This document shows positions 7,161-26,610 of a stretch of 26,866 nucleotides of DNA, one piece after another. How positions within the stretch are numbered: position 1 is the first letter of the stretch; each line of letters begins with the position of its first letter. Source of the stretch: Candidatus Woesearchaeota archaeon (lineage in GTDB: Archaea > Nanobdellota > Nanobdellia > Pacearchaeales > GW2011-AR1); the NCBI GenBank assembly GCA_964528865.1, contig CAZGTS010000001.1:1-26866 (forward strand). Direction: 5' to 3'. Below the pieces are notes generated by a model. It had not been told where the DNA came from and did not search any database. It saw only the letters and a list, made by a program, of their open reading frames with translations. The position numbers and the translations under genes were made by a program.

Positions 7161-7285
7161 AATTGAATTAGTTAATTGTTGTTTATAAATATTTTGAGAA
7201 ACTATCTTAAAGGTTATTTTTAGAAATATTTAATGAAAAAATTTTAAGTAACGAAAGACTTAAATAATAATAGAAATTAAAGATA

Positions 7286-11696: not shown

Positions 11697-12422
11697 ATGT
11701 TAGTTAAATTGGAAAATCCTGCTTTATTGTCAAAGGCGATTGATATTATTTCGGAGCTTGTTACTGACGCGAGAATTAAGGTGAATGAGTTTGGAATGAG
11801 TATTACTGCTATTGACCCTGCGAATGTTGCGATGGTTGGATTTAGGTTGCCGAAGAGTGCTTTTTCTCAGTTTGAGACCGGTAATGAGGTTTTAGGTGTT
11901 AACTTAGATAATCTGAAAAAAATTTTGAAAAGATGCGGAGTTGGAAGTTCGTTGATTTTAGAAAAAAAAGAGAATCAATTAGAAATTAAAATTTATGACA
12001 AAATCAGGAGAAATTTTAGTTTGAATTTAATTGAAATTGAAAGCGAAGATAAGGAAATGCCAAGTTTGGATTTTAGTTCGCGGGTTGAGATGTTGTCGAA
12101 TTATTTTATCGAGGCTGTTGAAGATTGTGCGGTTGTTGATGATGCGTGTTCGTTTATTATTGAAGACGGTAAATTCATAATTAACGCGAAAAGTTTGAAT
12201 TCTGCGCGTTCTGAATTTTCAAGTGACGAGGTGAAAATTGAAGCTGAAAATTGCAAGTCAAGATATAGTTTAGAATATTTGCAAAAATTTTCTAAAGGAG
12301 CCAAACTTTGCGATAAGACAATTTTGAATTTTGCAAACGAGCATCCGTTGAAGATAGAATTTAAGGCTGAACATTTTGATTTGAGTTTTATTCTTGCTCC
12401 ACGCGTTGAGACCGAGGATTAG
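11697..12422 (+). CDS. pcn: DNA polymerase sliding clamp PCNA
   Basis: AIDPANVAMV, GVNLDNLKKILK, SRYSLEYL and HPLKIEF...FILAPR match archaeal PCNA; TTTAAAAG 29 nt upstream. Confidence 0.97.
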   Translation: MLVKLENPALLSKAIDIISELVTDARIKVNEFGMSITAIDPANVAMVGFRLPKSAFSQFETGNEVLGVNLDNLKKILKRCGVGSSLILEKKENQLEIKIYDKIRRNFSLNLIEIESEDKEMPSLDFSSRVEMLSNYFIEAVEDCAVVDDACSFIIEDGKFIINAKSLNSARSEFSSDEVKIEAENCKSRYSLEYLQKFSKGAKLCDKTILNFANEHPLKIEFKAEHFDLSFILAPRVETED

Positions 12423-12453
12423 CGATTTAAATATCTAAAGCATTAATGAAAAT

Positions 12454-12587
12454 CGCTTGTCCGAGTTGAGGATTAACGCGAAGGAGAAATTAAATATATT
12501 AATACCGAGAGTTAGTCCGAGTTGAGAACTAGCACGAGAGAAGCAGTATAATCCAGTGACGAGTGCTGGGCTGAGTTGAAGATTAGC
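12454..12587 (+). repeat. Array of three hairpins with an invariant GAGTTGA loop at 54-56 nt period
   Basis: Loops at 12463-12469, 12519-12525 and 12573-12579, each closed by a different but complementary stem; a fourth degenerate half-unit overlaps the PCNA stop. Confidence 0.7.
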
Positions 12588-12647
12588 TCCTTTGGCAAAT
12601 ATTTATATTATCAAAAAGATTATAAGCATAAATGTTTTGGTGTGTTT

Positions 12648-13484
12648 ATGAATAGAGATAAAAAATCAAAAATTTTTTATCCCGCTCGCTCGCCCAGGCG
12701 TGGTCGAACGAAAGAGGGACAAGTAACTATTTTTATAATTATTGGTATATTATTCATTACAGCAATTATGCTTTTTTTCTTTCTTAGAGAAGACCTTCTT
12801 CCTGGAACAGGAGGAAAATCAGAAGAAAATCCTGGAGGGTTTTTAGAAATTTGTATAGAAGACAAATTAATAGAAGGAACTAAATTGATTTCTTCACAGG
12901 GAGGGTACATTGAAAATCCTCTTAACAGAACTTTTAAGTTTAGTGATGAAAATGATTTTACCGATATTTCTTATTTGTGTTATAATCAAAATAATTATTT
13001 CTCTTGCATAAACCAAGAACCAATGTTAATACAACATTTGAAAGCAGAAGTAAAAACATATGTTTTTGATGATGTTCGGACTTGTTTTGATAATTTAGTT
13101 TTAAGTTTAGGTAAAAGGGGTTATGTTGTTGATGCAACGTATAATGGATTTGAAATTGAGTTTGCGACAAAAAAAATTATTATTGATATTGACGGAAAAA
13201 TTATTTTAACAAAATCTGATGAGACTACAAGACAGGAAAATCTTAAAATAATTTTTCCGAGCAGGTTCTATGATTTGGCTGGCGTTGTGCAAGAAATAGT
13301 TAGTCAAGAAGCAAGGTTTTGTAATTTTGAGAATTTGGGATTTATGGCATTTTATCCTAAGTTTAATATAGAAAGATTTAGAATAGGGGATGGAACAATA
13401 ATTTATACTGTTAAACATTTGGAGACTCAAGAAGAATTTAAATTTGCCATAAGAGGTTGCATTATACCTCCAAAAATATTTTAA
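12648..13484 (+). CDS. Class III signal-peptide (archaeal pilin-like) protein, 278 aa (start revised from TTG 12576)
   Basis: ..KEG/QVTIFIIIGILFITAIMLFFF; TATA-like ATTATAAG at 12619 is 29 nt before ATG 12648; paralog of 17322-18092. Confidence 0.8.
   Translation: MNRDKKSKIFYPARSPRRGRTKEGQVTIFIIIGILFITAIMLFFFLREDLLPGTGGKSEENPGGFLEICIEDKLIEGTKLISSQGGYIENPLNRTFKFSDENDFTDISYLCYNQNNYFSCINQEPMLIQHLKAEVKTYVFDDVRTCFDNLVLSLGKRGYVVDATYNGFEIEFATKKIIIDIDGKIILTKSDETTRQENLKIIFPSRFYDLAGVVQEIVSQEARFCNFENLGFMAFYPKFNIERFRIGDGTIIYTVKHLETQEEFKFAIRGCIIPPKIF
12683..12711. repeat. REP-like hairpin copy 1 (in the prepilin leader-coding region)
   Basis: CGCTCGCTC-GCCCAGGCGT-GGTCGAACGA; the last 20 nt match 26515-26534 at 19/20. 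Confidence 0.75.
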
Positions 13485-13496
13485 TTTAAACAAACA

Positions 13497-16400
13497 ATGA
13501 AAAAAGCAAATACTAAAAAAATAGAAATTATTTCATTAATAATAGTTATTTTACAAATATTTTTGTTAATGAATTTAGTTTCCTCAAATAGTTATCTTAT
13601 TCATCAAGCTGATAAGTCTTTAGAAAATTTAAACACTATTGATGAGGAAAAAAGTTTTAACAATTTGATTAACTCTGGGTTGAATTTATTAAGTGGTATT
13701 TTGTCTATAAAACAAATAGGAATTGTTTCTGCAGAAGTGTCAGAAGTTCCTCAATATTGTTGTTCTAAATCTAATGGAGAAGATGTCTGTTCAGATACCT
13801 CTGACCCTTTTTCTCCTTGTGATGTTCCAATACTCAGTGGAACTTGTGAACAAAATAATTGTATGAAATGTTGTCCTGAAACTAATGAAGGAGAATTTTG
13901 TAAAGATGTTTCAATGCTTTTTGAAGATTGTGCTAGACCATTAATTGATGGAAATTGTCTTGATATTGATTGTATAAGCTGTTGTCCAAAGACAATTGAA
14001 GAAGAATTTTGTAAAGATGTTTCTAAATTTCATCAAGATATTTGTTCAGATGAATATCCTTTATATTCAACGAATTGCCAAGCAATTAATTGTAGAAAAG
14101 TAGTTTTAAATGATCCTAATATACCTCCACAAGATCCTTTAGATTTAGATATTAGTTGGAATTGCTGTTCTGAGTTGGAAGATGGTTCTATTTGTCAAGA
14201 CATTGCTTCAATTACTCCTGAACTTTGTTCTGTTTCGCCTTTACCAACAAAATGTGAAGATACTGTAAATTGTAAACTTGGATGTTGTATTGATGAAGAA
14301 GAAGGTTTATGTGCAACAAAAGCTTCTAAACAAAAATGTGAAGAAGGTGGGGGAGAATGGGATAATGATTTCAATTGCTTGATTCAGGAATGTCAAAAAG
14401 GATGCTGTGTTTTAGGAAATAATGCGGAATTTGTTACAGAAACAAGATGTGACAAACTTTCAATATCTTGGGGTTTTGAAAAAGATTTCAAAGAATATTT
14501 AAAAACAGAAATTCAATGTCTTGCTCTTGTTGCTAATACTTCTACAGAATCTTGTATTGGTAATAATTGTGTAACTCCAGAAAAAAAAGATTGCATTGAT
14601 GAAAAAGGAGATGTAAAAAAAGACGGGGAAAGTTGGTGTTCTTATGAAGGCTATATTGGTGATGGAAAAGACACTGTTGGTAGCAGGCACTGGAAACAAT
14701 CTTGTGTTGATGGTGAAATTGTAAATGAAGGGTGCCAAGATTATAGAGGATATATTTGTGCTCAAACAATAATGGAAGAAGGCTCATTAAAATTTTCTAT
14801 GGCTTCCTGTGTTCCTAATGAAGCAATTTTATGTTTAGGATATAATAGTGACCAAGCAACTATGGGGGAAAATTGTAATGAAAATAAACATTGTATGATT
14901 AAAAACATTTATGTTGATTCATATTTTAAGTTTGATGTTTGTGTTGGAAGGTATCCTCCAGGAATTAAAGATTACTGTTCAATGGCTAGCCAGACATGCA
15001 CTGTGATATATGTGAAGGATTGGAAAGGAAGTTGGAAATGTGAAAAAAACTGTAATTGTGAAAGACAAGTATTCCCAGAACAAATGAATAATTTGTGTAT
15101 TTCTATGGGAGATTGTGGTAGTTATATTAATTATATTGGAAATGGGACAGATAATATAAAAGTTACAAATGCTCCAATGATTTCTTGGAAAAATTATAAA
15201 AATTATGTGAACTTAGTAGCAGGGCAATTTGTAGAACCGCAAGACATAGATAAATTTTTATCTTCTTTAACAGGAACAAGTACAACTCTTCCTGGAGAAG
15301 AACCTGATGGTTTTAATAAAGGTGTTAAATTTTTAGGACAGATTATAGGAGCAGCAGGTAGTTTAGTTAGTGCGAGTATGTTTCTAGGATCAATGGTTCC
15401 ATCGATGTCAATTGTAGTTTCACCAGGTGTTTATGCAGGTCTTAGCGCATTTTCAGGAGCAGCAGCTGGAGCAGCAATTGGTGCAATGGCAGGAGCATAT
15501 CTTGCAAAAGCTCTTGGAATATCAGGAATTGCTGCAACTGTTATGATGGTTGCAGGAGCAGTCGCAGGAGCTGTTATCGGAGCATGGGCGGTAGGAATGG
15601 CAATTCCAGTGGTAGGTTGGGTAATTGCCATAATAGCAGTACTAATTATGATTTATATTGCGCTTATTGGTTGGGGAAAAACAAAAGAAATAAAAGTTAA
15701 ATTTGAATGCATGCCTTGGGAAGCTCCTGTTGGAGGAAGTGATTGTGAAAGATGTCATGAAGATGATTCAAAACCTTGCACAAAATATAAATGTGAAAGT
15801 CTTGGGCAAACATGTAAATTATTAAATGAAAATGAAGAAAACCCGATTTGTGAAAGTATAGCTCATGAATCAAATCCTCCAGTGATTTCTGCAGGAGATA
15901 TTTTTAATTATACTCATCTATTAAATAATCCATTAAATCCCTTTAAGATTGATTTTAATTATAAATTCCAGAAGGAAAAAACAAAATATGTAGAATTAAA
16001 ACAAAGTAATGGGAAATGTATTCAAGAATTCACGCCTATCTTGTTTAATTTAAATACAGATGAGTTTGCTCAATGCAAATATAGTTTTCAAAAAACCAGC
16101 CTATTTGAAGAAATGGAAGAATATCCTCTTGAACAAACTAAATTTGGAATAAACCACACTTTTAAATTTAAAATGCCAAGTTTAAGTCACTTAGAGGTTT
16201 ACAATATTAGTGAAGACTTAAAAGAAAGTTTTGGAAACTTGAACATGTATGTAAGATGCCAAGACTATCAGGGGAATTTTAATATAAATGAATATATAGT
16301 AAACTTCTGCATTAATTCAGAACCAGACACAACTGCTGTTAATCATGAGTTTACAATTACAAATCCTAAAAACAAATATTTTTTGAAATATGGAACAACA

Positions 16401-17237
16401 CAACAGGACATGAAGATGCGGATAAACGAACCAGCAGAATGTAAGTATGATATTATCCCAGGAATAGATTATGATGCTATGATAAATTCAATGACATGCA
16501 ACTGGATGTCTGAAGAAGAAGATAATTGGTTATGCAATACAACTTTAAGTGTAAGTGGTGGAGAAAATAAATTTTATATTAAATGCAGAGATAAACCTTG
16601 GTTTGATTATCTTGAGACAGATGAAGAAAGAGAAAAATACAAAGGACGAAATACTAATGTCAATGATTTTATTTATACTTTACATGTAACAGATAAAGAA
16701 TTAATAATAGATTCAATTACTCCTAAAGGAACTTTGGAATTTGGGTTTGAACCAGTTTCTGTTGATTTGGAAGTCAAAACTTCTGGCGGAGTAGATAATG
16801 GAAATTCTAAATGCTCTTATCAGTGGGCAGGAAATTGGATTCAGTTCTTGAGTACTTTTTCAAATTCGCATACTCAGCCAGGAGTAAATTTAATGAGTGG
16901 GAATTTTAATACTCCAATAAAGTGTGAAGATGATGTAGAAAATGTTGTTTATGGAAATGCCGTGTTCAAAATAGAAGTGGATTCAGAACCTCCAATTGCG
17001 GTGAGGGTTTTTTATGAAGGAGGTGACCTTAAATTAATTACAGATGAAGAAGCAAAATGTTATTATGATTTTAATAGTTGTGATTTTAATCTTATTAATG
17101 GAAGTTCTATGTCTTCTTCACTTTCAATAGAGCATTCTGCAAAATGGAGTGTAGGACAAACGCATTATATAAAATGCGAAGATTTTTGGGGAAACACAAA
17201 TCCAACTTGTGCAATTAAAGTAGAACCAAGTAATTAA
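13497..17237 (+). CDS. Giant secreted/membrane Cys-rich protein with a central Gly/Ala-rich hydrophobic region and C-terminal FN3/Ig-like repeats
   Basis: N-terminal hydrophobic signal, many CC/CxxC motifs, a ~119-aa hydrophobic Gly-zipper stretch (aa 609-727) and repeated (T/I)(N/D)E.A.CK(Y) beta-sandwich-like motifs. Confidence 0.8.
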   Translation: MKKANTKKIEIISLIIVILQIFLLMNLVSSNSYLIHQADKSLENLNTIDEEKSFNNLINSGLNLLSGILSIKQIGIVSAEVSEVPQYCCSKSNGEDVCSDTSDPFSPCDVPILSGTCEQNNCMKCCPETNEGEFCKDVSMLFEDCARPLIDGNCLDIDCISCCPKTIEEEFCKDVSKFHQDICSDEYPLYSTNCQAINCRKVVLNDPNIPPQDPLDLDISWNCCSELEDGSICQDIASITPELCSVSPLPTKCEDTVNCKLGCCIDEEEGLCATKASKQKCEEGGGEWDNDFNCLIQECQKGCCVLGNNAEFVTETRCDKLSISWGFEKDFKEYLKTEIQCLALVANTSTESCIGNNCVTPEKKDCIDEKGDVKKDGESWCSYEGYIGDGKDTVGSRHWKQSCVDGEIVNEGCQDYRGYICAQTIMEEGSLKFSMASCVPNEAILCLGYNSDQATMGENCNENKHCMIKNIYVDSYFKFDVCVGRYPPGIKDYCSMASQTCTVIYVKDWKGSWKCEKNCNCERQVFPEQMNNLCISMGDCGSYINYIGNGTDNIKVTNAPMISWKNYKNYVNLVAGQFVEPQDIDKFLSSLTGTSTTLPGEEPDGFNKGVKFLGQIIGAAGSLVSASMFLGSMVPSMSIVVSPGVYAGLSAFSGAAAGAAIGAMAGAYLAKALGISGIAATVMMVAGAVAGAVIGAWAVGMAIPVVGWVIAIIAVLIMIYIALIGWGKTKEIKVKFECMPWEAPVGGSDCERCHEDDSKPCTKYKCESLGQTCKLLNENEENPICESIAHESNPPVISAGDIFNYTHLLNNPLNPFKIDFNYKFQKEKTKYVELKQSNGKCIQEFTPILFNLNTDEFAQCKYSFQKTSLFEEMEEYPLEQTKFGINHTFKFKMPSLSHLEVYNISEDLKESFGNLNMYVRCQDYQGNFNINEYIVNFCINSEPDTTAVNHEFTITNPKNKYFLKYGTTQQDMKMRINEPAECKYDIIPGIDYDAMINSMTCNWMSEEEDNWLCNTTLSVSGGENKFYIKCRDKPWFDYLETDEEREKYKGRNTNVNDFIYTLHVTDKELIIDSITPKGTLEFGFEPVSVDLEVKTSGGVDNGNSKCSYQWAGNWIQFLSTFSNSHTQPGVNLMSGNFNTPIKCEDDVENVVYGNAVFKIEVDSEPPIAVRVFYEGGDLKLITDEEAKCYYDFNSCDFNLINGSSMSSSLSIEHSAKWSVGQTHYIKCEDFWGNTNPTCAIKVEPSN

Positions 17238-17321
17238 AATAAATTTATAAAGCAAATATAAAATTTCCATTATAAATATTTTCAAGAAAATATTTATAAA
17301 CAAGGTTATCCTAAAATTAAT

Positions 17322-18092
17322 ATGAGGTGTATGGAAAAAAAGAATGGGCAAGTTACAATTTTTATTATAATTGGAATAATAATTATAGCGTTTGGAATTT
17401 TAATTTATGTATTTTATCCTCAGATTAAAACAACACTTGGGTTTGAGACAGATAATCCTTCTGCATTTATTCGAGAATGTTTAGAAGAAAAAATAGTAAA
17501 TGATTTAGAAGTATTGTCTTTGCAAGGGGGAAGTTTGGAACCTGAACATTATATTTTGTATGACAATGAAAAAGTGGAATATTTATGTTACATTGAAGAA
17601 TATTATAAAACTTGCGTGGTGCAACAGCCAATGTTAAAGAAACATATTGAAGCTGAGATTAAAGAAAGCATTCAGGAAAGAGTAACAGAGTGTTTTGATA
17701 ATTTAGAAAAAAATTATGTTAGAAAAAATTATGCTGTAGAATTAAAAGGGAGCGGTGGAGAAATTGAGTTGCTTCCGAAGAGAATTGTTGCTACATTTAA
17801 TCGTTCTCTTGTTTTGACGAAGGATGGGACAGAAACCTATAATTCGTTTGATGTGATTGTTAACAATAATATTTATGAACTAGTTAGTGTAGCAAATAGT
17901 ATAATAAAATGGGAAACAAGTCTTGGGGATGCAGAGACAACCACTTACATGAATTATTATCATGACCTGAAAGTTGAGAAAAAGAAACAGTCAGATGGTT
18001 CAACTGTTTATATCTTGACTGACAGGAACAATGGAAATAAATTTCAGTTTGCGTCGAGAAGCATTGCTTGGCCTCCTGGATTTGGAATTTAA
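17322..18092 (+). CDS. Class III signal-peptide (archaeal pilin-like) protein, 256 aa
   Basis: MEKKNG/QVTIFIIIGIIII; shares QGG, YLCY, Q.PML..H, CFDNL and F.FA.R motifs with 12648-13484; TTTATAAA 29 nt upstream. Confidence 0.85.
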   Translation: MRCMEKKNGQVTIFIIIGIIIIAFGILIYVFYPQIKTTLGFETDNPSAFIRECLEEKIVNDLEVLSLQGGSLEPEHYILYDNEKVEYLCYIEEYYKTCVVQQPMLKKHIEAEIKESIQERVTECFDNLEKNYVRKNYAVELKGSGGEIELLPKRIVATFNRSLVLTKDGTETYNSFDVIVNNNIYELVSVANSIIKWETSLGDAETTTYMNYYHDLKVEKKKQSDGSTVYILTDRNNGNKFQFASRSIAWPPGFGI

Positions 18093-18093
18093 A

Positions 18094-19527
18094 ATGGAAA
18101 ATAAATTAATTTTAATAATCTTGGGAATTTTCTTAATTAGTTTTGCTTCTGCTGTTGGAGAAGTTTCATATTGTTGTGAAAAAACAGTTGCAGGTGCTTG
18201 GTGTCAAAATGCTCCTGAAGAACAATGTTCAACCGCTGTTGATTCTTTTACAAATACTGCTTACAAAAAAGTTCCGGCTTCTTGCGAGGCGACCTCTTAT
18301 TGTAAATTAGGAACTTGCATTAGCGAAGGAGATTGCATGGAAAACACTCCTGAAAGAAGATGTGATAAAGAGTTAGGAGGATATTGGGAAGGAAAAGACG
18401 CAGATGAAATCCCGCAGTGTGAATTAGGATGTTGCTTGATTGGAGACCAGGCAGCTTTTGTTACGCAAACACGATGCAAAAAATTATCAGCAGTATATGG
18501 CTTGCAAACTAATTTTAGAATAGACCTTACAAATGAATTAAGTTGTATTGCTTCTGCAATGTCTGATGTAAAAGGGGCTTGTGTTTATGAAAAAGATTTT
18601 TCAAAGACCTGCCAGTTCATAACTAAAAAAGAGTGTTCAGAATCAAGTGCTGGAAACAACACAGAGTTTTATGAAGGAATTTTGTGCTCTGCTGAAACAT
18701 TAGGAACTGATTGCGGGAAATCTAAAGAAACAACTTGTGTTAATGGAAGAGATGGAGTTTATTTTGTAGACACTTGTGGAAACTTGGCAAATATTTATGA
18801 TTCTTCAAAAATAAATAATAAAGAATATTGGACAAATATTTATGGTGAAGGAGAAAGTTGCAACCCAAGTTCATCAAATGCGAATTCAGTTAGTTGCGGA
18901 AATTGTGATTATTATTTAGGAAGTACTTGTGAAGATTATAAATTAGCAGGAAAAAAAGCTACTTATGGAGACAATATTTGCAAGGATTTGAGTTGTAAGT
19001 ATGATGGGAAAAGTTATGAACATGGGGAGACATGGTGTGCAGACAGCAACGGCGTTAAAGAGAATTTGCCAGGAAGCAGATATTTTAGATTAGTGTGTTA
19101 CAATGGAGAAGTCAGTGTTGAACCGTGTGCAGATTTTCGGCAGGAAACTTGTATTCAGTCGGACATTGGGGGATTTAAAACAGCGGCGTGCAGAGTAAAT
19201 ATGTGGCAGGATTGTGTTGCACAAGAAAATAAAAAAGATTGCGAGAATATTGATAGAAGAGATTGCAAATGGCAAGAAGGGAAATGTATTCCGTTATATG
19301 CTTCTGGTTTTAATTTTTGGGAAACAGAAGGAGATGCTAAACCAATATGTTCATTGGTAAGTCAAACTTGTGTTATAAAATATGAAAAAAAATTAGGTGG
19401 AGATAAAAAGTGTGTTGAGAACTGCGAGTGTCTTGACGCGTCGTGGGAAGATAATATGAATAAAATGTGTATTTCTATGGGGGACTGTGGAGAAAAGACA
19501 AATTATCTTGGATATAAAGGTTTTTGA
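18094..19527 (+). CDS. Secreted Cys-rich protein, homologous to the N-terminal half of 13497-17237 (start revised from 18031)
   Basis: Signal peptide from ATG 18094, 1 nt after the upstream stop; shared GCC..G..A.FVT.TRC.KLS, GE.WC and CISMGDCG...NY.G motifs. Confidence 0.85.
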   Translation: MENKLILIILGIFLISFASAVGEVSYCCEKTVAGAWCQNAPEEQCSTAVDSFTNTAYKKVPASCEATSYCKLGTCISEGDCMENTPERRCDKELGGYWEGKDADEIPQCELGCCLIGDQAAFVTQTRCKKLSAVYGLQTNFRIDLTNELSCIASAMSDVKGACVYEKDFSKTCQFITKKECSESSAGNNTEFYEGILCSAETLGTDCGKSKETTCVNGRDGVYFVDTCGNLANIYDSSKINNKEYWTNIYGEGESCNPSSSNANSVSCGNCDYYLGSTCEDYKLAGKKATYGDNICKDLSCKYDGKSYEHGETWCADSNGVKENLPGSRYFRLVCYNGEVSVEPCADFRQETCIQSDIGGFKTAACRVNMWQDCVAQENKKDCENIDRRDCKWQEGKCIPLYASGFNFWETEGDAKPICSLVSQTCVIKYEKKLGGDKKCVENCECLDASWEDNMNKMCISMGDCGEKTNYLGYKGF

Positions 19528-19555
19528 GAATTTATTAATTTATAATTCTGTCCTC

Positions 19556-19586
19556 ACTTTAAAGTAATCAAAAGATTTAAATATTC
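19556..19586 (+). promoter_or_regulatory. Duplicated BRE/TATA promoter block, copy 1
   Basis: ACTTTAAAGTAATCAAAAGATTTAAATATTC, 31/31 identical to 21502-21532; TTTAAATA is 29 nt before ATG 19605. Confidence 0.75.
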
Positions 19587-19604
19587 AAAACACATTTACA
19601 AACC

Positions 19605-20033
19605 ATGACTAAAAACTCACAAGAGGTGAGAAATGGAAAACCAAGTCGTTTGACGACATTGTTATTAGCTGGTTCTATGTTAGTTGGGTTGGGTTCTATT
19701 AGTGGATGTATAACACCACAAGGAAGACAATTCATTAACACTATGGGTTATACTGCTGCAGGAACTTTTGTCAAAGGAAGTGTTAGAAAAGAAATGGGGC
19801 ATCGTGATTATCAAAATAAACAGGGAACAGCACATCGTAGAGGACAATACTTTATTGTTGTGAATTTAGCAACAGGAGAAAGTAAAACTATTGACGGACC
19901 CCATTGGAGACTTTATACAAAAATAATCAAAACTAAAAAAAGAGATATTTATCCAGAAGGATTTAAAATGTTTCGTTATGATGTAGATGGTGACCATTGT
20001 GCAACAGTTAGTTGGAATGGGAAGGGTAATTAA
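19605..20033 (+). CDS. Putative lipoprotein A (lipobox-like ISGC)
   Basis: Basic N-region, hydrophobic h-region, SISG-C; the first 38 codons from the lipobox are ~96% identical to 21557-22186. Confidence 0.7.
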   Translation: MTKNSQEVRNGKPSRLTTLLLAGSMLVGLGSISGCITPQGRQFINTMGYTAAGTFVKGSVRKEMGHRDYQNKQGTAHRRGQYFIVVNLATGESKTIDGPHWRLYTKIIKTKKRDIYPEGFKMFRYDVDGDHCATVSWNGKGN

Positions 20034-20074
20034 AATTTACAAAAATTTATAAAAATATTTTCTTTGTTTTTAAT

Positions 20075-20182
20075 ATGAATAAAAGAGGAATTGCACTTTG
20101 TCAAATAATTATTTTATTATCCTCTATAGTTGCGTTTAGTTTTATTTTGAATATTGGAGTTGTGGCAATTAGTTTTATATAA
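20075..20182 (+). pseudogene. Truncated gene remnant: signal peptide only, paralog of the 22287 N-terminus
   Basis: MNKRGIALCQIIILLSSIVAFSFILNIGVVAISFI* resembles QIYLMIVSVISFSFILNIDLVIA; the same AAAAATTTATAAA promoter lies 29 nt upstream of both. Confidence 0.65.
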
Positions 20183-20188
20183 AACTAA
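20169..20188. repeat. Perfect 20-bp palindrome at a convergent junction
   Basis: TTAGTTTTAT|ATAAAACTAA, containing the stop codons of both converging ORFs. Confidence 0.8.
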
Positions 20189-20552
20189 AATCAATATCCA
20201 ATGTAAATGATTCTCTTTTTCCAGAAAAAAATCTAGATAAGATATTTGGTCCTCTTCTTTTAAAAGAAACATTAACACTATCTAATTTTGATAATTTTCT
20301 TTCAGAAAGATTATTCAAATAAGCCTCTGCGACAGAGTATCCTCTGCAATTTCCGATTTGAGCTGTTTGGTCTCTCGCATAACTTTTTAAAATTTCTGCT
20401 GCTAAAAAAGGATTTCTTCTTCCTAAAGCAGTTTCAGGACTTTCAGGAATAGGAACAGGATTAAAAGAATTAGTCCAAGGGTCGGGCATTCCTGGATACA
20501 TTATTTCTGGATTAATACTTCTTTTAACTATTTCATTCATTTTAATATCCAA
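20175..20552 (-). CDS. Hypothetical protein, paralog 3 of a tandem triplet
   Basis: PESPETALGRRNP...RGYSVAEAYLNNLSERKL domain shared with the two upstream ORFs. Confidence 0.7.
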   Translation of the reverse strand: MDIKMNEIVKRSINPEIMYPGMPDPWTNSFNPVPIPESPETALGRRNPFLAAEILKSYARDQTAQIGNCRGYSVAEAYLNNLSERKLSKLDSVNVSFKRRGPNILSRFFSGKRESFTLDIDFSFI

Positions 20553-20994
20553 AACTAAAATTTACTTTATTTAGGTTATGACGAGCATCCCATCTAGAAT
20601 ACTTTGGTGAAAATGAAAATTCAAAAAAGTTTATTTTTGTAAGTGCTTCAGAAGATAAATCATTTAAATAATTTATCGCCCGATTAAATCCATTTTTAAT
20701 TTCAATTTTTTCTTCTAATCCTCTTCTCTCAGAATGATTTGAAGAATCACTAAGTGTAGGTCCTCTACTTAAAATTGGCAGAGGTTCTGTCCTATAATTA
20801 TTTAATCCTTCTCTATTTCTTATTATGAGTTCCACTCCTCCTGGAAAAAAGTTTTTTTCAAAATATTTCCATATTCCTTTATCCAATATTCCAAAACTCC
20901 ATTCTTTTATTTTAGAAGCAGGAGCATAATAAACAGATTCTCTTCTAAGAAAACTACTTATTCTTTTACAGAGATTTGAAATATATTCTATCAT
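20542..20994 (-). CDS. Hypothetical protein, paralog 2 of a tandem triplet
   Basis: ILSRGP...KNGFNRAINYLNDLSSEAL aligns with the shared domain; start and stop overlap the neighbours. Confidence 0.65.
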   Translation of the reverse strand: MIEYISNLCKRISSFLRRESVYYAPASKIKEWSFGILDKGIWKYFEKNFFPGGVELIIRNREGLNNYRTEPLPILSRGPTLSDSSNHSERRGLEEKIEIKNGFNRAINYLNDLSSEALTKINFFEFSFSPKYSRWDARHNLNKVNFSFGY

Positions 20995-21455
20995 CTTTTA
21001 ATTTTAATTTTTAAATTATATTCTTCTCCAGAAGAAAAAAATCCTAATCCTATACTTCTTTCCAATGTAACTCTAACACCTTTAGCATCATCTAATGCTC
21101 CTTTAGGTAAAGTGTTCAATATTTTTTCTGTAGTTAAATATCCTCTGTTCAATGATTCTTGGTAGGTTCTTTCTTTAGATAAATCTTTCATTAAATCTGA
21201 TGCAGTTTTAGAGTCTCTCCTTGCAATGGAGGTTCCAGGGCTTTCAGGATAAATAGAGTTTCTTTCTTAAATTGTTTCTCCACTTCCCCCACAATCTTTG
21301 TCTAAAACTTCTCTTCCTGCAATTCCTACAGCAACTGCTCCTGCTATACCAAGATAAAGAGGCATGAATGGTCCAGTTAAAGGGGCTACTACTAATGTTG
21401 CAATCCCAATTCCTCCAAGTTTCTTTCTAAAGCTTTTTTCATTCGAAGATGCCAT
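20991..21455 (-). pseudogene. Membrane-anchored paralog 1, interrupted by a single in-frame TAA at 21267-21269
   Basis: ORFs 21267-21476 and 20991-21191 are in the same frame; the 25 intervening codons read ERNSIYPESPGTSIARRDSKTASDL, homologous to paralog 3. ATG 21455 is 29 nt from CTTAAATA. Confidence 0.8.
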
Positions 21456-21501
21456 AAAAATCCTACCACTCCACACTATTTAAGGATTATTGTGATGTGT
21501 T

Positions 21502-21532
21502 ACTTTAAAGTAATCAAAAGATTTAAATATTC
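21502..21532 (+). promoter_or_regulatory. Duplicated BRE/TATA promoter block, copy 2
   Basis: 31/31 identical to 19556-19586. Confidence 0.75.
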
Positions 21533-21556
21533 TAAACTCCCCTATAAATTAATAAA

Positions 21557-22186
21557 ATGTCAAGAAAATTAACAAATCTTATTGGAGCTGGTTTATTTGC
21601 AGTAGGTGGTATGGGGTTGTTAAGTGGATGTATAACACCACAAGGAAGACAATTTATTAACAGCCTGGGTTATACTGCTGCAGGAACTTTTGTCAAAGAA
21701 AGTGTTAGAAAAGAAATGGGGCATCGTGATTATCAATCACAGCAAAGAAAAGAAAATAGAACTTATGTTCCAAAGGGATTACGACCTGCACAATTAGAGA
21801 GGGCTTTTTTTGCTTGTAATTATTGGAAAGACTTTAATAATGATGGAACAACTAATTATCCAGAGGAATATGTTGGAATTAAAAATAAATTTAGAGACTA
21901 TGAAACAATAGTTTTAGTTTTACATGATGGAGTTGGGGAGAGGGGAACTAAAATAGTCCAAAAAATTTTCAATCCAAAAGGAGAAGAGATTTATAATGTT
22001 GAAAAGATTTTTTCTCAAAAAGGTTGTTCAGTAATAATGGGGATTAACGGTGATGCTATGGGGTGGTTGATTGAAAAAGGGGGTTATGGAAATTTTAAAT
22101 CTGTTTGGTATATTAATAATGCTTATGCCGATTCAACTGAATTTGAAATAGTCCATTCAGAACAAACTAAAAAACTTGATAAGTAA
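21557..22186 (+). CDS. Putative lipoprotein B (lipobox-like LSGC) with a beta-rich C-terminal domain
   Basis: GLLSG-C; shares CITPQGRQFIN..GYTAAGTFVK.SVRKEMGHRDYQ with 19605-20033, then unrelated sequence. Confidence 0.7.
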   Translation: MSRKLTNLIGAGLFAVGGMGLLSGCITPQGRQFINSLGYTAAGTFVKESVRKEMGHRDYQSQQRKENRTYVPKGLRPAQLERAFFACNYWKDFNNDGTTNYPEEYVGIKNKFRDYETIVLVLHDGVGERGTKIVQKIFNPKGEEIYNVEKIFSQKGCSVIMGINGDAMGWLIEKGGYGNFKSVWYINNAYADSTEFEIVHSEQTKKLDK

Positions 22187-22286
22187 TTTATCTAATAAGA
22201 ATTTGAAGAAACTATTCTAAAACATAATAATTTTAAATGATTGTGAGTAATGAAAAATTTATAAATAACAATTAACTAATTCTTCT

Positions 22287-24284
22287 ATGAAAAAGAGATT
22301 AATAAAAAGTATTTCTTTATTTCAAATTTATCTAATGATAGTCTCTGTAATCTCTTTTAGTTTTATTTTAAATATTGATCTTGTTATTGCAGAGGTTCCT
22401 GAAATAAAAGTTCTCCCAACAGGAAGTTCAACTGCCTCAGAATATTTTGGAATAAAGCCTCTTGCAGAAGGGAAGAAAACAGCAGAATTTTTTTCAGGCA
22501 CTGTTGGAGGAGGAGCAGATGCAATAGTTTCTGGAGCACAATATGCGTTGATAGTTGTAGGTGTAATACAGATGATCGCACCAATGTTAGGAGCAGATTC
22601 AGCTTTAACAAATGCATTATCAGTTTCTCTTGGTACTGGTGTTTTTATTGGAAAAGGATTATATACTTTATTAGGAGAAGGGGGAACGTGGAGTTCGTGG
22701 ACAACTAATGCAGGATCATGGTCCATCGCAGGAGGAGTAGTAACTGCAGCAGTTATTTTTTATATGATGTACAAATCTGAAGAAACAGAAACAAAAATAT
22801 TCACGTGCGAGGCTTGGCAAGCTCCGACAGGTGGAAGCAATTGCGAGAAGTGCAATAAGCAAGGGGAACTTCCCTGTTCTGAATATCAGTGTCGGAGTTT
22901 AGGGCAGTCTTGCGAGTTGTTGAATCCTGGAACTGAAGAAGAACAATGCACATGGGTTAATAGAAACGACGTGAATCCGCCTGTGATGAAACCATTAGAG
23001 AGTGCGTTGCTGAATAATTATGTTTATTCTCCTGACAATACAATTTCTCCTCCTGATAAAGGAGTTAAAGTGCAGAACAAGGCATTGGCTTCAAAATGTG
23101 CAGAGGCTTTCACACCTTTGACATTTGGTATAATCACAAACGAACCTGCACAATGTAAAATTTCTCCTTTAAGAGAAAAAAGTTTTGAAGACATGGGGCT
23201 TTATTTTGGGGGCAGCAATTCATTCACTTACAACCACACGCAAGTTATGATTTTGCCTGGAGCAGAAGCACTTGAAGCAGAAGGACTAACATTGCAAAAC
23301 AACGGGAACTTTGAAGTTTATGCGAGATGCCAAGATGCAAATGGCAACGCAAACACCGCAAACTTTGTGTTCAAGTACTGCGTAGAAAAAGGCCCAGACA
23401 CAACACCGCCGTTAATTGTATCAACGAACTTATTAAACAATATGCCAATTGCATTTGATCAATCCTCAATAGATTTAAATATTTACACAAACGAACCTGC
23501 AGATTGTAAATGGGATTATTTAGACAAAGCTTATGATAATATGGACAATACATTCACCTGCTCAAAAAACATATTTCAAATGAATGCACAAATGCTTTAT
23601 CCTTGCTCAACAACATTAACAGGTTTGAAGAATGAATTCAAAAATAAATTTTATTTTAGATGCAAAGATTTATCTGAAAATACAAATGCAGAATCCTATT
23701 TATTTACTTTACTTGGAACAAAACCATTGGTAATTGATTATGTTTCGCCAGATGCAGAAACAATAAAAGACTCAACAGATATTGTTCAAGTAACATTAAA
23801 AGTTGAAACATCTGCAGGCTATAACGACGGGGAATCAGCATGTTATTATAGCGACACAGGAACAGAAGATAGTTATGTTCTATTCGGTAATACAAATTCC
23901 CATCAACATTCTCAAGAATTATGGTTTAATGCTGGTACCTATGAGTATTTTATAAAATGCCTTGACCTTGGAGGAAATACCGATGAGAAAACAATAAACT
24001 TTGATGTGGAATCTGATGTCACAAGTCCGTTAGTTGTCAGGGTTTATCATGAAGATAAATATTTAAAATTAATAACAAACGAAAAAGCAGAATGTGTTTA
24101 TGACACAACAAGTTGCAGTTATACTTTTGAAGACGGGATAAAAATGGCTAACATAGACGGTATAACTCATTACACAGACTGGAACACTCAAACAAATTTT
24201 TACATTAAATGCAAAGATTCTTATGGTAACAAACCTTTTCCAGATAAATGTAATTTAATTGCTAAACCTTCTCAGATATTTTAA
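22287..24284 (+). CDS. Secreted/membrane Cys-rich protein, homologous to the C-terminal half of 13497-17237
   Basis: Own signal peptide, hydrophobic Gly-rich segment, C..W.AP.GGS.CE.C....PC..Y.C.SLGQ.C.LLN and TNEPA.CK repeats; TTTATAAA 29 nt upstream. Confidence 0.85.
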   Translation: MKKRLIKSISLFQIYLMIVSVISFSFILNIDLVIAEVPEIKVLPTGSSTASEYFGIKPLAEGKKTAEFFSGTVGGGADAIVSGAQYALIVVGVIQMIAPMLGADSALTNALSVSLGTGVFIGKGLYTLLGEGGTWSSWTTNAGSWSIAGGVVTAAVIFYMMYKSEETETKIFTCEAWQAPTGGSNCEKCNKQGELPCSEYQCRSLGQSCELLNPGTEEEQCTWVNRNDVNPPVMKPLESALLNNYVYSPDNTISPPDKGVKVQNKALASKCAEAFTPLTFGIITNEPAQCKISPLREKSFEDMGLYFGGSNSFTYNHTQVMILPGAEALEAEGLTLQNNGNFEVYARCQDANGNANTANFVFKYCVEKGPDTTPPLIVSTNLLNNMPIAFDQSSIDLNIYTNEPADCKWDYLDKAYDNMDNTFTCSKNIFQMNAQMLYPCSTTLTGLKNEFKNKFYFRCKDLSENTNAESYLFTLLGTKPLVIDYVSPDAETIKDSTDIVQVTLKVETSAGYNDGESACYYSDTGTEDSYVLFGNTNSHQHSQELWFNAGTYEYFIKCLDLGGNTDEKTINFDVESDVTSPLVVRVYHEDKYLKLITNEKAECVYDTTSCSYTFEDGIKMANIDGITHYTDWNTQTNFYIKCKDSYGNKPFPDKCNLIAKPSQIF

Positions 24285-24285
24285 G

Positions 24286-24320
24286 AAAAGTAAATCAGCT
24301 GTACAGGCAAGATTTTCATT
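24286..24320. repeat. Intergenic repeat, copy of 26486-26509 carrying an 11-nt insert
   Basis: AAAAGTAAATCA-[GCTGTACAGGC]-AAGATTTTCATT versus AAAAGTAAATCA-AAGATTTTCATT; both lie right after a stop codon. Confidence 0.7.
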
Positions 24321-24381
24321 ACTTATTTTAACAAAAATGAAAAATGGCTAAACTTATAAATCTTAATTTTCTTATTTCTTT

Positions 24382-25347
24382 ATGAAAAAAGGTGAGAAAA
24401 AATTAAAAATTTTTCCTACCATTCGTCCACGCTTGGGTAGTCGAACGAGAGGTTATTTACAAATATCTTTTACTTGGCTCTTTTCAATTATTGCTGGAGC
24501 AATTATTTTGTTTCTTGTTATTTTTATGACCTCGAAATTAATTAGCACAGAGCAGATGACTTTAAACGCAAAAACTGGAACAGAAATTGGTATTTTGTTG
24601 AACCCAATTGAAATGGGTTTTGAAAGTGCAAAGTCCACGACAATGACCTTGCCTGTTGAAACAAGAATTATTGCAAAATGCGAAGAAGATAACCAATTTG
24701 GGAAACAAATTATAAATCTATCACAAAAGAACCTTGGCGAATGGACTGTGACAAATATTGAAGCTAAATTCACAAACAAATATATTTTCTCAAAAAATCT
24801 TGAAGGGGAAACATTTTACATTTTTGTAAAGCCGTTTGAGTTGGGGTTCAAGGTTGCTGATTTGATTTATATGACTTCTTCTAAAAAAGAATATTGCTTC
24901 GAAAATGCTCCAGAAAACATTAAAAAAGAAATTGAATTTTTGAACCAAAAAAATCTTGTTACAGAAAATTGTCAAGAAGACTCTATTGAAATTTGCTTTA
25001 GTGGTTCTTGCGAAATTAAAGTTAATTATAATTCAAAGTATGTAATTAAAGAAGGGAATAGAATGTATTTTAGTGACGATGTTTTAATGTATGCGGCTAT
25101 TTTTTCAGATAGTGAAGTTTATGAATGCCAAGTAAAAAGATTGATGCAAAGAACAGCGAATCTTGCTTTATTGTATAAAAACAAGGCGAATTTTGTTTCT
25201 AATAGAGGATGTAATTCTAATTTGAATTTGTTGGGATTAAAAAATGCTGCGGAAGATTTAAGAAATTCTGCAGAGCTAAAATCAGTTAATAGTATTGCAG
25301 AAGATATTAATGATTTAAATAAATTTGCAGAGTGTAGGCTATGGTAG
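24382..25347 (+). CDS. Class III-like signal-peptide (pilin-like) protein, 321 aa
   Basis: Basic leader ..RTRG-YLQISFTWLFSIIAGAIILFLVIF; CTTATAAA 29 nt upstream. Confidence 0.75.
   Translation: MKKGEKKLKIFPTIRPRLGSRTRGYLQISFTWLFSIIAGAIILFLVIFMTSKLISTEQMTLNAKTGTEIGILLNPIEMGFESAKSTTMTLPVETRIIAKCEEDNQFGKQIINLSQKNLGEWTVTNIEAKFTNKYIFSKNLEGETFYIFVKPFELGFKVADLIYMTSSKKEYCFENAPENIKKEIEFLNQKNLVTENCQEDSIEICFSGSCEIKVNYNSKYVIKEGNRMYFSDDVLMYAAIFSDSEVYECQVKRLMQRTANLALLYKNKANFVSNRGCNSNLNLLGLKNAAEDLRNSAELKSVNSIAEDINDLNKFAECRLW
24420..24448. repeat. REP-like hairpin copy 2 (core inverted)
   Basis: CATTCGTCC-ACGCTTGGGT-AGTCGAACGA; arms as in 26506-26534, core is its reverse complement at 9/10. Confidence 0.75.
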
Positions 25348-25940
25348 TCAAAATCTCACTTCGTTCAATCTGGTTCGCCCAAGCATGGTCAAACCAAAGA
25401 ACTGATTCAATCGCACAAAATAAAAAAGCGCAAATGAAAATACAGCAAATGGTATTTATGTTGCTTGCGGCTACATTATTTTTTGCACTAGTTGGAATGC
25501 TTTTGTTGGCTTTGAAATTTTCAGGATTAAAAGAATCAGCAACAGAGCTTGAGGAAAAAAATGCCCTGCTTCTTGTAACAAAGATTGCAAACTCCCCTGA
25601 GTTTTCATGTGGTAGCGCATTTGGAAACCTTAAGACTAATTGTGTTGATGCTGACAAAGTTATGATGTTGAAAAAAAATATAGATAAATATGATAATTTT
25701 TGGGGGAAAGAGACGAACATAGAAATAATTAAAATCTACCCCGAAGGGAATGTGGTCTGCACCATAGGGAACTACCCTAATTGTAATCTTATAAATTTGC
25801 AATCAAAAAAAATAAATATAGAACATTCAAATTTTATTTCATTATGCAGAAAGAATTTAATTAATGGTGAAGTTCATGATAAGTGCGAGTTGGCAAAGAT
25901 AATTGTAAGTTATAAAGATTGGCGTGAAAATGATGATTAA
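25341..25940 (+). CDS. Class III signal-peptide (pilin-like) protein, 199 aa
   Basis: ..NKKA/QMKIQQMVFMLLAATLFFALVGMLLL; overlaps the upstream stop. Confidence 0.8.
   Translation: MVVKISLRSIWFAQAWSNQRTDSIAQNKKAQMKIQQMVFMLLAATLFFALVGMLLLALKFSGLKESATELEEKNALLLVTKIANSPEFSCGSAFGNLKTNCVDADKVMMLKKNIDKYDNFWGKETNIEIIKIYPEGNVVCTIGNYPNCNLINLQSKKINIEHSNFISLCRKNLINGEVHDKCELAKIIVSYKDWRENDD
25368..25396. repeat. REP-like hairpin copy 3 (in the prepilin leader-coding region)
   Basis: Core GCCCAAGCAT-GGTC with TGGTT/AACCA arms. Confidence 0.65.
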
Positions 25941-26481
25941 AACAACGAAGAATAAATCTGGACAGAAGCAGAAATCGAAGATTTCTCCATTTGCCAAGAA
26001 TAAATCTGGACAAGAGGAACTTATTGGATTTGTCCTAATTATAGTTTTAGTTGCAATTATTGGATTAATTTTTCTTGGGTTCTCTTTAAGGAGTCCTCAG
26101 AAAGAGATAGTTGAAAGTTACGAAGTTGAGAGCTTTATTCAGGCATTTTTGCAATACACTACAGATTGCGGGAATTATAGAGAAAATTATCTGCCACTTC
26201 AAAAATTAATCTCTGCGTGTGTTGATAAAGAAACTTGTTTAGATGAAAGAGAAAGTTGTGATGTTTTAAATTTTACATTGACTGGAATGATTGAAAATAG
26301 TTGGAAAGTGGAAGGAGATAGACCAATTCAAGGTTATGAATTAAAAATTGTGTTAGAAAATGGGACAGAAGTAATCCCTTTGATTAATAATGGGAATAGC
26401 ACGAAGAATTCTAAAGGGGTTTCACAACCTTTTACACCTCTTGGAGAAAATTATGAAGTGACTTTCATAGTTTATTATTAA
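25930..26481 (+). CDS. Class III signal-peptide (pilin-like) protein, about 183 aa
   Basis: KNKSG/QEELIGFVLIIVLVAIIGLIFLGF; the leader motif KNKSGQ is duplicated. Confidence 0.8.
   Translation: MMIKTTKNKSGQKQKSKISPFAKNKSGQEELIGFVLIIVLVAIIGLIFLGFSLRSPQKEIVESYEVESFIQAFLQYTTDCGNYRENYLPLQKLISACVDKETCLDERESCDVLNFTLTGMIENSWKVEGDRPIQGYELKIVLENGTEVIPLINNGNSTKNSKGVSQPFTPLGENYEVTFIVYY
25948..26012. repeat. 17-bp direct repeat flanking a 31-nt hairpin insert
   Basis: AAGAATAAATCTGGACA at 25948-25964 and 25996-26012, with GAAATC-GAA-GATTTC between them; 48-nt period keeps the frame. Confidence 0.8.
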
Positions 26482-26485
26482 CAAA

Positions 26486-26610
26486 AAAAGTAAATCAAAG
26501 ATTTTCATTCGTCCGCCCAAGCGTGGTCGAACGAAACCTAAGCGGTTTTTTGGAATTTCCCTTCCTGTTCCGGTGAAGCGGTTTCTTTATTGCAATCCGA
26601 AGGAAACCGC
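26486..26610. repeat. Cluster of REP-like hairpins / probable bidirectional terminator between convergent genes
   Basis: AAATC-AAA-GATTT (26492-26504), REP copy 4 (26506-26534), AAACC/GGTTT and GCGGTTTC/GAAACCGC (26578-26585/26603-26610). Confidence 0.65.

Follow-up and report, generated by a model that had tools for sequence, protein, structure and literature searches.

The Rickettsia palindromic elements (RPEs), roughly 100-150 bp in length, are short hairpin repeats of a reduced genome that sit in frame at tolerant positions of proteins, vary in presence among orthologs and also occur in non-coding DNA. Here we describe repeats of comparable behavior, a family that we name E1, in a 26,866-nt stretch of archaeal DNA (hereafter the window: Candidatus Woesearchaeota archaeon, assembly GCA_964528865.1, contig CAZGTS010000001.1, positions 1 to 26,866, forward strand). 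The likeness is one of behavior only: E1 is a hairpin repeat that is read in frame and is absent from orthologs in the leaders of pilin-like genes, in Cbf5 and in the tail of TFE. The analogy with RPEs had been drawn in an original prediction made from the letters of the window, and it proves apt; E1 lies in frame in Cbf5 and TFE as well. E1 differs from RPEs in that it is 46-63 nt long, archaeal, made of two adjacent hairpins, asymmetric between the strands and concentrated in class III (prepilin-type) leaders, which are presumably cleaved.

Several other systems come close. Repetitive extragenic palindromic (REP) sequences have a GT[AG]G head and a single imperfect palindrome of 20-40 nt, and lie outside genes. 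With REPs, bacterial interspersed mosaic elements and their REP-associated tyrosine transposases (RAYTs), E1 shares short imperfect palindromes, many copies and strand-specific structure, and in one relative a Y1 transposase adjoins the orthologous pilin-like gene. However, E1 has no GT[AG]G head, has two hairpins, lies mostly inside genes and shows target duplications at some sites. MITEs (miniature inverted-repeat transposable elements) are likewise small, non-autonomous and variably present, with flanking direct repeats at some copies; a census placed a Woesearchaeal genome among those with the highest MITE densities and found ~90% of MITEs in intergenic DNA (PMC11602168). For E1, leader codons dominate instead, the ends are not inverted repeats and the flanking repeats, ~4 to 36 nt, are not of fixed length. 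The palindrome-associated transposable elements (PATEs) derived from IS200/IS605 have two different sub-terminal hairpins and a strand-specific fold, as E1 does, and the strand asymmetry of E1 would fit single-stranded DNA transposition. In the IS200/IS605 family, insertion takes place 3' of a fixed tetra- or pentanucleotide and is not known to duplicate the target, whereas for E1 no fixed target was found and the tRNA sites carry duplications of 18-21 nt. Finally, one E1 copy recalls the small hairpin-loop inversions of non-coding chloroplast DNA, since its center is exactly reverse-complemented between unchanged arms and is forward in a relative; here, however, the flip lies in a translated leader and rewrites four residues. 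A literature search returned no account of hairpin repeats in archaeal class III leaders, nor of RPE-like elements in archaea. Thus, REP/MITE/RPE-like repeats are known as a kind, but the leader niche appears to be new, and the strand and duplication behavior unusual.

E1 copies in the leaders of pilin-like genes

DPANN archaea have tiny, gene-dense genomes and need surface filaments for attachment to their hosts. The window has a G+C content of 31% and holds genes for PCNA, a primase subunit and other archaeal housekeeping proteins; homologs of its proteins are labelled Candidatus Pacearchaeota, Nanoarchaeota or Woesearchaeota, and its source is thus a Pacearchaeota-like member of the DPANN archaea. 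The translations of the genes that carry E1 copies begin with a short basic N-terminus, followed by K or R at -2, G, A or S at -1, often Q at +1, and then ~20 hydrophobic residues, which is the class III pattern. Leaders of this kind are most often 5-6 residues long among 232-380 class III open reading frames (ORFs) in related loci, as in MKKRG/Q (the slash marks the cleavage site). Pfam gave no relevant match for a class III signal or a pilin, even at E up to 5 and with leader-proximal fragments; the genes are called pilin-like here from the motif and its conservation in hundreds of orthologs, without a curated model match. No prepilin peptidase of the FlaK/PibD/EppA type was among the genes examined in ~37 kb of this genome.

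The core GCCCARGCRTGGTC occurs four times in the window with at most 2 mismatches, at 12692(+), 25377(+), 26515(+) and 24425-24438(-), against 0.08 expected, and none of 100 shuffled sequences reached four. The original prediction had placed four core copies at 12683, 24420, 25368 and 26506 and taken them for a ~29-bp hairpin. The copies are real, and the shared core stands with the reservation that in copy 2 the center lies on the opposite strand. The size was underestimated: similarity runs ~25 nt upstream of the core into an A/T-rich palindrome (AAATCAAAGATTTT, or GATAAAAAATCAAAAATTTTTTATC in c1), and the unit in fact comprises 46-63 nt, with an A/T-rich hairpin S1 (AAAATC-AAA-GATTTT or GATAAAAAAT...ATTTTTTATC) upstream of a G+C-rich hairpin S2 (Table 1).

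Three copies (c1 to c3) lie between the start codon and the cleavage site, in frame and in at least two reading frames (c3 is read in another frame than c1 and c2), and add 51-63 nt, each time a multiple of 3. Their translations PARSPRRGRT, TIRPRLGSRT and WFAQAWSNQ had been read correctly, as had their place ahead of the cleavage site and the minimal leader kept by a paralog at 17322. The frame of the fourth copy has no start codon, and c4 is part of no ORF with a start. At 12711-12719 the cleavage motif of the c1 gene reads K-E-G/Q, with Glu at the -2 position that orthologs fill with K or R; judged from this motif, processing of the protein may be affected.

The copies would only seem to be coding if the true starts lay downstream of them, which is not what we find. 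For c1 and c2, a TATA-like box that orthologs retain precedes the start codon by ~27 nt, which suggests that the mRNAs have at most a short leader. At c3 the ATG runs into the stop of the upstream gene (the window and L036 read ATGGTAG, many other orthologs ATGGTAA), and for c1 and c2 there is no alternative start between the element and the cleavage site. Thus, the coding copies lie downstream of the true starts. As a separate observation, the promoter and start regions of three genes for secreted or surface proteins (7133-7194, 22253-22314 and 24350-24389) share AAAYTTATAAAT..N..ATGAAAAA, and the spacing of ~27 nt between TATA-like box and ATG in these genes fits leaderless transcripts.

Table 1. 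Coordinates of E1 copies and associated features in the window, with the state of each site in relatives (a slash in a peptide marks the cleavage site)
Feature	Position	Strand	Context	Structure or model match	Filled in	Empty in	Insert (nt)
c1	12656..12717	+	leader of gene 12648-13484 (MNRDKKSKIFYPARSPRRGRTKEG/QVTIF)	covariance-model match 61.3 bits	window, L029	L030	51-54
c1 hairpins				S1 GATAAAAAAT-CAAAA-ATTTTTTATC; S2 CTCGCTCGCCCAGGCGTGGTCGAACGA
Empty site, c1 paralog (17322 gene)	17331..17351	+	minimal leader ATGGAAAAAAAGAATGGGCAA (MEKKNG/Q)		L136	window	57
c2	24393..24454	+	leader of gene 24382-25347 (MKKGEKKLKIFPTIRPRLGSRTRG/YLQISF)	covariance-model match 47 bits	window, L136, L138, L036	L034, L035	60
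c3	25345..25408	+	leader of gene 25341-25940 (MVVKISLRSIWFAQAWSNQRTDSIAQNKKA/QMKIQQMVF)	covariance-model match at 25345-25402	window, L035 (two tandem copies), L037, L048, L061, L081	L034, L036, L136	63
S1-only partial element	25966-25997	+	leader of gene 25924/25930-26481 (..KNKSGQKQKSKISPFAKNKSG/QEELIGF)	hairpin GAAATC-GAA-GATTTC
c4	26485..26540	+	intergenic, past stop (26481) of last pilin-like gene	covariance-model match 66.7 bits	window	L136	46
Second conserved hairpin	26578..26610	+	after c4	GCGGTTTC...GAAACCGC

Filled and empty alleles

We compared the window with contigs and proteins of relatives (L and P labels, respectively; proteins 70-85% identical). The alignment of orthologs that had been proposed as a check reveals empty alleles in close relatives at all four sites. 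In fact, most orthologs carry minimal leaders such as MKKRG/Q, and those of the c1 gene mostly begin MKKRG/QVTIF. In L030 (P0002, 82% identical, with the PCNA neighbor shared and an identical promoter) the c1 site reads ATGAAAAGAGGGAGAAAAGGACAAGTA, and the c1 insert is measured against this contig; L029 (P0004) has a diverged filled allele. The insert lengths at the other sites come from L036 for c3, from L034 and L035 for c2 and from L136 for c4. At the 17322 gene the states are reversed, and the L136 element there has a different, perfectly palindromic S1 (AAAAAACCTT-GG-AAGGTTTTTT). Coding copies measure 45, 51/54, 57, 60 and 63 nt, all multiples of 3, and the non-coding c4 46 nt.

Relatives also carry E1 where the window does not. 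The c3 orthologs of L037, L048, L061 and L081 have copies at another position and in another frame than the window copy, so this leader must have been hit at least twice, and one L037 copy lies outside the leader, just upstream of the ATG. A near-identical c4 copy with the same downstream sequence occurs in another genomic context in L120, L122 and L124. The S1-only partial copy of the window is bounded by 16-nt direct repeats GAATAAATCTGGACAR (25950-25965 and 25998-26013); inserts like it, of the form KKAQ-EQKSKIL..-KA/QEEM, are found in orthologs of L038, L051, L059, L075, L092 and L136.

Enrichment in leader codons, also put forward as a check, was assessed in 81 pilin loci (1.18 Mb) that had been chosen by protein similarity and not by the element. 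Ten of the 12 strong matches fall in class III leader codons, which make up ~1.5% of the bases; the other two are the copy directly 5' of the pilin cistron in L037 and c4. G+C spikes are 3.3-fold higher in leaders than in other N-terminal regions. A generic test for hairpin enrichment was not discriminating, with 0.7-1.1 hairpins per kb in every category, and family-specific models were used in place of a generic hairpin or G+C-spike test. The peptide LWLWSNK upstream of some c2 orthologs was considered as a trace of the element and discarded, being the C-terminus of the preceding gene (..YGEALVTI, then stop).

One DNA element, several peptides

The same DNA element yields three readings according to its site, KSKIF..RGRTK, NQRF.. 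and ..AQAWSNQ, and TCG, ACG and AGC, all of them rare codons for A/T-rich DNA, are invariant among copies. On this comparison of sequences, the constraint is on nucleotides and not on the peptide.

The center of c2 provides a second view of the same element. Its arms CATTCGTCC and TCGAACGA are forward and identical to those of c4, and the central 12-14 nt (~24425-24438) alone are reverse-complemented. L136 reads TTCGTCC-TCCCAAGCGTGG-TCGAACGA where the window reads TTCGTCC-ACGCTTGGGTAG-TCGAACGA, and the rest of the two leaders is identical; the loop and inner stem of c2 are thus exactly inverted relative to L136, which turns PPKRGRT into PRLGSRT. At the same site L138 has S1 and flanks as at c2 but a different S2 (TTCGTTCGTCTCTAACGAGCCAAACGAG), which suggests that copies exchange sequence.

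Covariation and strand asymmetry

A covariance model built from 19 copies, with 6 pairs in S1 and 8 in S2, finds 25 copies (E < 1e-3) when run over 1.28 Mb of related DNA. In the alignment of these 25 copies 90.6% of paired cells are complementary, against 79.5% in shuffles and 27-59% in slid controls, figures that lean towards structure because the alignment was fitted to the model; both-sided changes are seen at 8 of 14 pairs. By eye, the inner stems vary and yet stay complementary (CGCCC:GGTCG, CTCGA:TCGAG, TGTG:CACA, CGTTT:AAACG, CTC:GAG), and S1 does likewise (AAAATC:GATTTT, GGTTCA:TGAACC, AAAAAACCTT:AAGGTTTTTT, GAGGC:GCCTC). Scans of the window for Rfam families (E up to 1) and for tRNAs gave nothing at the element copies.

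Sense-strand folds of the window copies are no better than those of shuffled sequences (z -0.1 to -1.7), whereas the reverse complement folds better in all 25 copies (mean -17.0 against -12.4 kcal/mol), with z after dinucleotide shuffling of -2.87 for antisense and -1.87 for sense. Non-Watson-Crick cells on the sense strand are C.A or A.C in 14 cases and G.T in 3, a 14:3 bias towards G.U on the antisense strand. Together with the better antisense folds, this bias places the selected structure on the strand antisense to the pilin mRNA. Other leader hairpin families show the same bias. These results weaken the proposal that 5' mRNA hairpins tune pilin stoichiometry, an idea of the original prediction; regulation in a broader sense is kept as an alternative and weighed below.

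Orientation is identical in every gene-associated copy, and the sense strand is the one with the weaker fold. This uniformity may reflect selection against the more stable strand in mRNA just past the start codon, or may instead reflect orientation-specific insertion. Stop codons as its cause found little support: open frames number 46 of 75 on the sense strand and 33 of 75 on the antisense strand.

Copies outside pilin leaders

A context-neutral pattern scan of metagenome contigs was used to find copies outside the pilin loci. It returned two more pilin leaders (L116 and L118) together with sites of other kinds. Copies lie just 3' of tRNA-Lys and tRNA-Pro genes (L119 and L114), each followed by an 18-21 nt duplicate of the 3' end of the tRNA. 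On the 5' side of the same tRNA-Lys (L119, reverse complement, ~1280-1400) the first ~16 nt of the gene are duplicated ~100 nt away, with a hairpin-bearing insert between the duplicates; thus, both ends of this tRNA show insertion with target duplication. Two tandem copies lie just upstream of the gene for ribosomal protein L15e (L115), in three species (L127-129) TFE has in-frame copies in its Lys-rich C-terminal tail, and an S1-only fragment sits between 36-nt imperfect duplicates of a gene start (L123).

The genome of the window itself has a further case. Its Cbf5 gene, 10 kb upstream (L007, 288-1415), encodes a 32-residue insertion relative to the P. furiosus Cbf5 structure, made of an E1 variant and a second 45-nt element nested in the loop of its S2. 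The protein has 375 residues, against 286-297 in most Pacearchaeota, and in orthologs the insert is absent or shorter. E1 copies can therefore be nested, as in Cbf5, or tandem, as in L035 and L115. Among Cbf5 orthologs, for their part, in-frame inserts vary and occupy four hot spots, one at the N-terminus, one after ELIE, one after EEY and one near the C-terminus. Several of these inserts resemble the leader insert families, e.g. HPRVY..FFSKIFTKGK. The copies at tRNA, L15e, TFE and Cbf5 genes argue against spread solely by gene conversion between leaders.

In viral contigs an 18-mer pattern, which was too short, matched nothing but unrelated phage coding sequences (..FFGAQAWSN..), and a longer gapped pattern had no match there.

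Enzymes, ends and target duplications

The original prediction had suggested a search for an IS200/IS605-type TnpA or a RAYT. None is found in the window, and neither the window nor L007 holds a RAYT flanked by E1 copies. Among the sampled loci, Y1_Tnp genes occur only in L031-33 and L046. These IS200/IS605-type genes encode 143-148 residues (L032 1272-1900, L031, L033, and L046 ~15150-15800), and their end hairpins are GAGCCGAGTATCTCGGCTC and CTACTAGCTAAAGCTAGTAG; in a Pacearchaeota metagenome-assembled genome (MAG) such a gene lies ~220 nt upstream of the start of the c1 ortholog. The Y1 transposase of L031-33 was considered as the mobilizer of E1 and set aside, as its end hairpins are unrelated to E1 and its homologs are rare in the sampled loci.

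Duplications flanking E1 range from ~4-6 A/G-rich nt at leaders to 16 nt at the S1-only copy, 18-21 nt at the tRNAs and 36 nt at the gene start; leader junctions lie in A/G-rich runs in which the exact position is not assignable. The long and variable duplications at tRNA ends, at gene starts and at the 3' end of the PCNA gene (see below) fit no standard transposase. A hairpin-binding HUH/Y1 enzyme, of which the strand-specific hairpins are reminiscent, is one candidate mobilizer, but HUH/Y1 systems are not known to duplicate their targets and these long duplications point to something else.

Mobile repeats or regulators?

To explain these results we propose that E1 copies are short stem-loop repeats (46-63 nt), found in Pacearchaeota-like DPANN archaea, that are mobile but non-autonomous and are tolerated in leaders, a reading that we consider rather probable. 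E1 copies would land in A-rich tracts and persist only where the host tolerates them, that is chiefly in leader peptides, and besides in spacers, surface loops and tails of basic or disordered sequence. In leaders the element would be transcribed and translated as 15-21 extra, mostly basic residues, and a copy would have to be a multiple of 3 nt and free of stops. The extra residues would presumably be discarded with the leader by the prepilin peptidase, and E1 would be tolerated there because the leader is removed. The elements themselves could be selfish or neutral. Leaders had been envisioned as a safe haven from the start; the present data support this, although leaders are the main niche and not the only one, given the copies at tRNA flanks, in spacers and upstream of L15e.

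Several points weigh against this proposal. The class III assignment is a matter of motif, with no Pfam match, and the c1 leader has the unusual Glu at -2 (KEG/Q). E1 lacks both a linked transposase and terminal inverted repeats (its ends are AAGACAAAAATC... and ...AACGAAAG), and the flanking duplications are inconsistent in length, so that no single known transposition chemistry fits. Inserts in 30% of pilin-like leaders amount to a high prevalence for junk in a streamlined genome. In addition, the uniform orientation and the covarying structure kept across distant species could both reflect function rather than parasitism. A broader possibility, which we raise tentatively as less than likely, is that E1 and the other leader families constitute an undescribed archaeal micro-transposon of ~50 nt with two one-strand hairpins, inserted at the ends of genes (in leader codons, at gene starts and at the 3' ends of tRNAs and of PCNA) with duplications of 16-36 nt by an uncharacterised integrase chemistry, e.g. 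casposase/Cas1-like or target-primed. In addition or instead, the same elements might be domesticated antisense or template-strand regulators of DPANN surface-filament genes. A related and slightly more doubtful alternative, unlikely in our judgment, would have E1 as a cis-regulatory module of a pilin regulon, recruited repeatedly and co-ordinating expression or stoichiometry through a structured site in the 5' mRNA, a structured antisense RNA or a structure of the template-strand DNA. The two-hairpin structure conserved with covariation across species speaks for such a module, as does the constant position (the first 10-70 nt of the cistron) and orientation of every pilin copy, including those in internal cistrons of one operon; the L037 copy, just upstream of its ATG and outside the leader, speaks for it too, and so do the convergence of several unrelated hairpin families on the same place and the better fold of the antisense strand in every copy. 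Against it stands a patchy presence: most orthologs of each gene, close relatives included, have no element, and presence varies even inside one operon. E1 also lies at tRNA flanks and in L15e, TFE and Cbf5 settings, the sense-strand folds are weak, no Rfam family matches, and at one orthologous site the center was inverted and S2 swapped.

The remaining explanations fare worse. It is quite improbable that E1 is a functional basic leader-peptide module, KSKIF..R..TKG, acting in targeting or peptidase choice and copied between pilin paralogs by gene conversion. Non-orthologous pilins do have similar frame-a translations (MNRDKKSKIFYPARSPRRGRTKEG, MKKRDKKLGIFYPTRPPKRGRTKG, MNKRDKKSKIFSNRSPLKSQTRG), and at one site L136 and L138 differ in S2, a difference suggestive of sequence exchange among copies, but c3 and the second L035 copy use other frames, the inversion of the c2 center rewrites the peptide, non-coding and non-pilin copies exist, and what is conserved is the nucleotide sequence, whose G+C-rich codons are atypical of a genome with 31% G+C. 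An arrangement in which arms surround a core, with the core exactly reverse-complemented in one copy, could evoke sites of a site-specific recombinase that shuffles promoters and leaders among pilin cassettes in the manner of a shufflon, c2 having the core in opposite orientation. We reject this very improbable scheme: contigs of this population from different samples are collinear (L001-L006), no recombinase is seen among the called window genes, judged by their recorded Pfam families, and a c1 x c2 recombination gives no productive fusion. Moreover, recombination among the three sites (of four) that are direct repeats would remove essential genes, and the c2 core is forward in relatives in an otherwise identical context, which fits a local hairpin-loop inversion rather than site-specific inversion. 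Hardly credible at all is a set of bulge-helix-bulge introns removed from mRNA by the tRNA splicing endonuclease, as in crenarchaeal cbf5. The only protein-coding gene of archaea in which an intron of this type is known is Cbf5 (PMC2738675), and it does carry inserts here. However, the flanking exon sequences are purine-rich on both sides, which makes an outer helix impossible, and the consensus fold has no bulge-helix-bulge geometry. Coding copies are stop-free multiples of 3 and the non-coding copy is 46 nt, as expected for inserts that are translated and not spliced, so this alternative was also rejected.

If up to ~30% of pilin-like leaders, as well as Cbf5 and TFE, carry such repeats, selfish DNA would survive genome streamlining in segments that are cleaved or disordered, and an archaeal parallel to RPEs would point to convergent evolution in reduced genomes. 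For annotation, mobile repeats in leaders would account for oddly long leaders, wrongly called starts and overlong proteins in these MAGs. The natural pairs of filled and empty alleles suit tests of the leader length that archaeal prepilin peptidases tolerate. Finally, with a fold specific to one strand and long target duplications, the elements hint at a mobilization mechanism that has not been described.

Other leader families and neighboring hairpins

E1 is not the only family of leader inserts. Leaders exceed 12 residues in 70 of 232 conservatively called class III ORFs of related loci, and ~30% of pilin-like leaders in related genomes carry E1 or other hairpin inserts. In the recurrent insert TRALTS..CPKSKRS both arms of a long G+C-rich hairpin are translated, often as two tandem units; further recurrent inserts are PQAY..KIFTRGKRG, FSLCNFF..KNRRG and the S1-only form KKAQ-EQKSKIL..KA/QEEM. 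Many leader inserts are flanked by duplicated cleavage-site codons, such as the 16-nt repeat at 25950/25998 and an 18-nt repeat in L100.

The second conserved hairpin (Table 1) may form a composite unit with c4. The same order of element, spacer and hairpin is found in L124 (4550-4592), where the hairpin reads GCGATTTC..GCCTCC..GAAATCGC and shows a compensatory change relative to the window version; it also lies upstream of the c3-ortholog ATG in L038, L050, L061 and L086. Its general form is GCGATTTC-(..ATTGCCTCC..)-GAAATCGC-ATAAA, and the loop often has CCUCC, which resembles an anti-Shine-Dalgarno sequence.

Upstream of c1, at 12400-12590, the end of the PCNA gene (its last ~20 nt, stop codon included, GTTGAGACCGAGGATTAG) is repeated three times further downstream, the copies being separated by short inserts that contain hairpins; L030 is 110 nt shorter here and has one extra copy only. 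These repeats look like serial insertions, each duplicating the 3' end of the gene.

A duplication of another kind involves 19556-19835 and 21502-21757, where promoter and 5' coding region are 85-87% identical. The ORFs that own this region (19605-20033 and 21557-22186) have N-termini that end ..GC and look lipoprotein-like. Lastly, an intergenic hairpin with a conserved ..ACCCTAT.. loop (e.g. TCTCAGCAAGGTGGTTAACCCTATACCATCAGGTTGAGA) keeps a constant place ~2.5 kb downstream of the c2 ortholog in L084 (~12577), L097 (~12655), L112 (~12819), L082 (~12553), L046 (~12559) and many other Pacearchaeota loci, and may be a conserved small RNA or a terminator.

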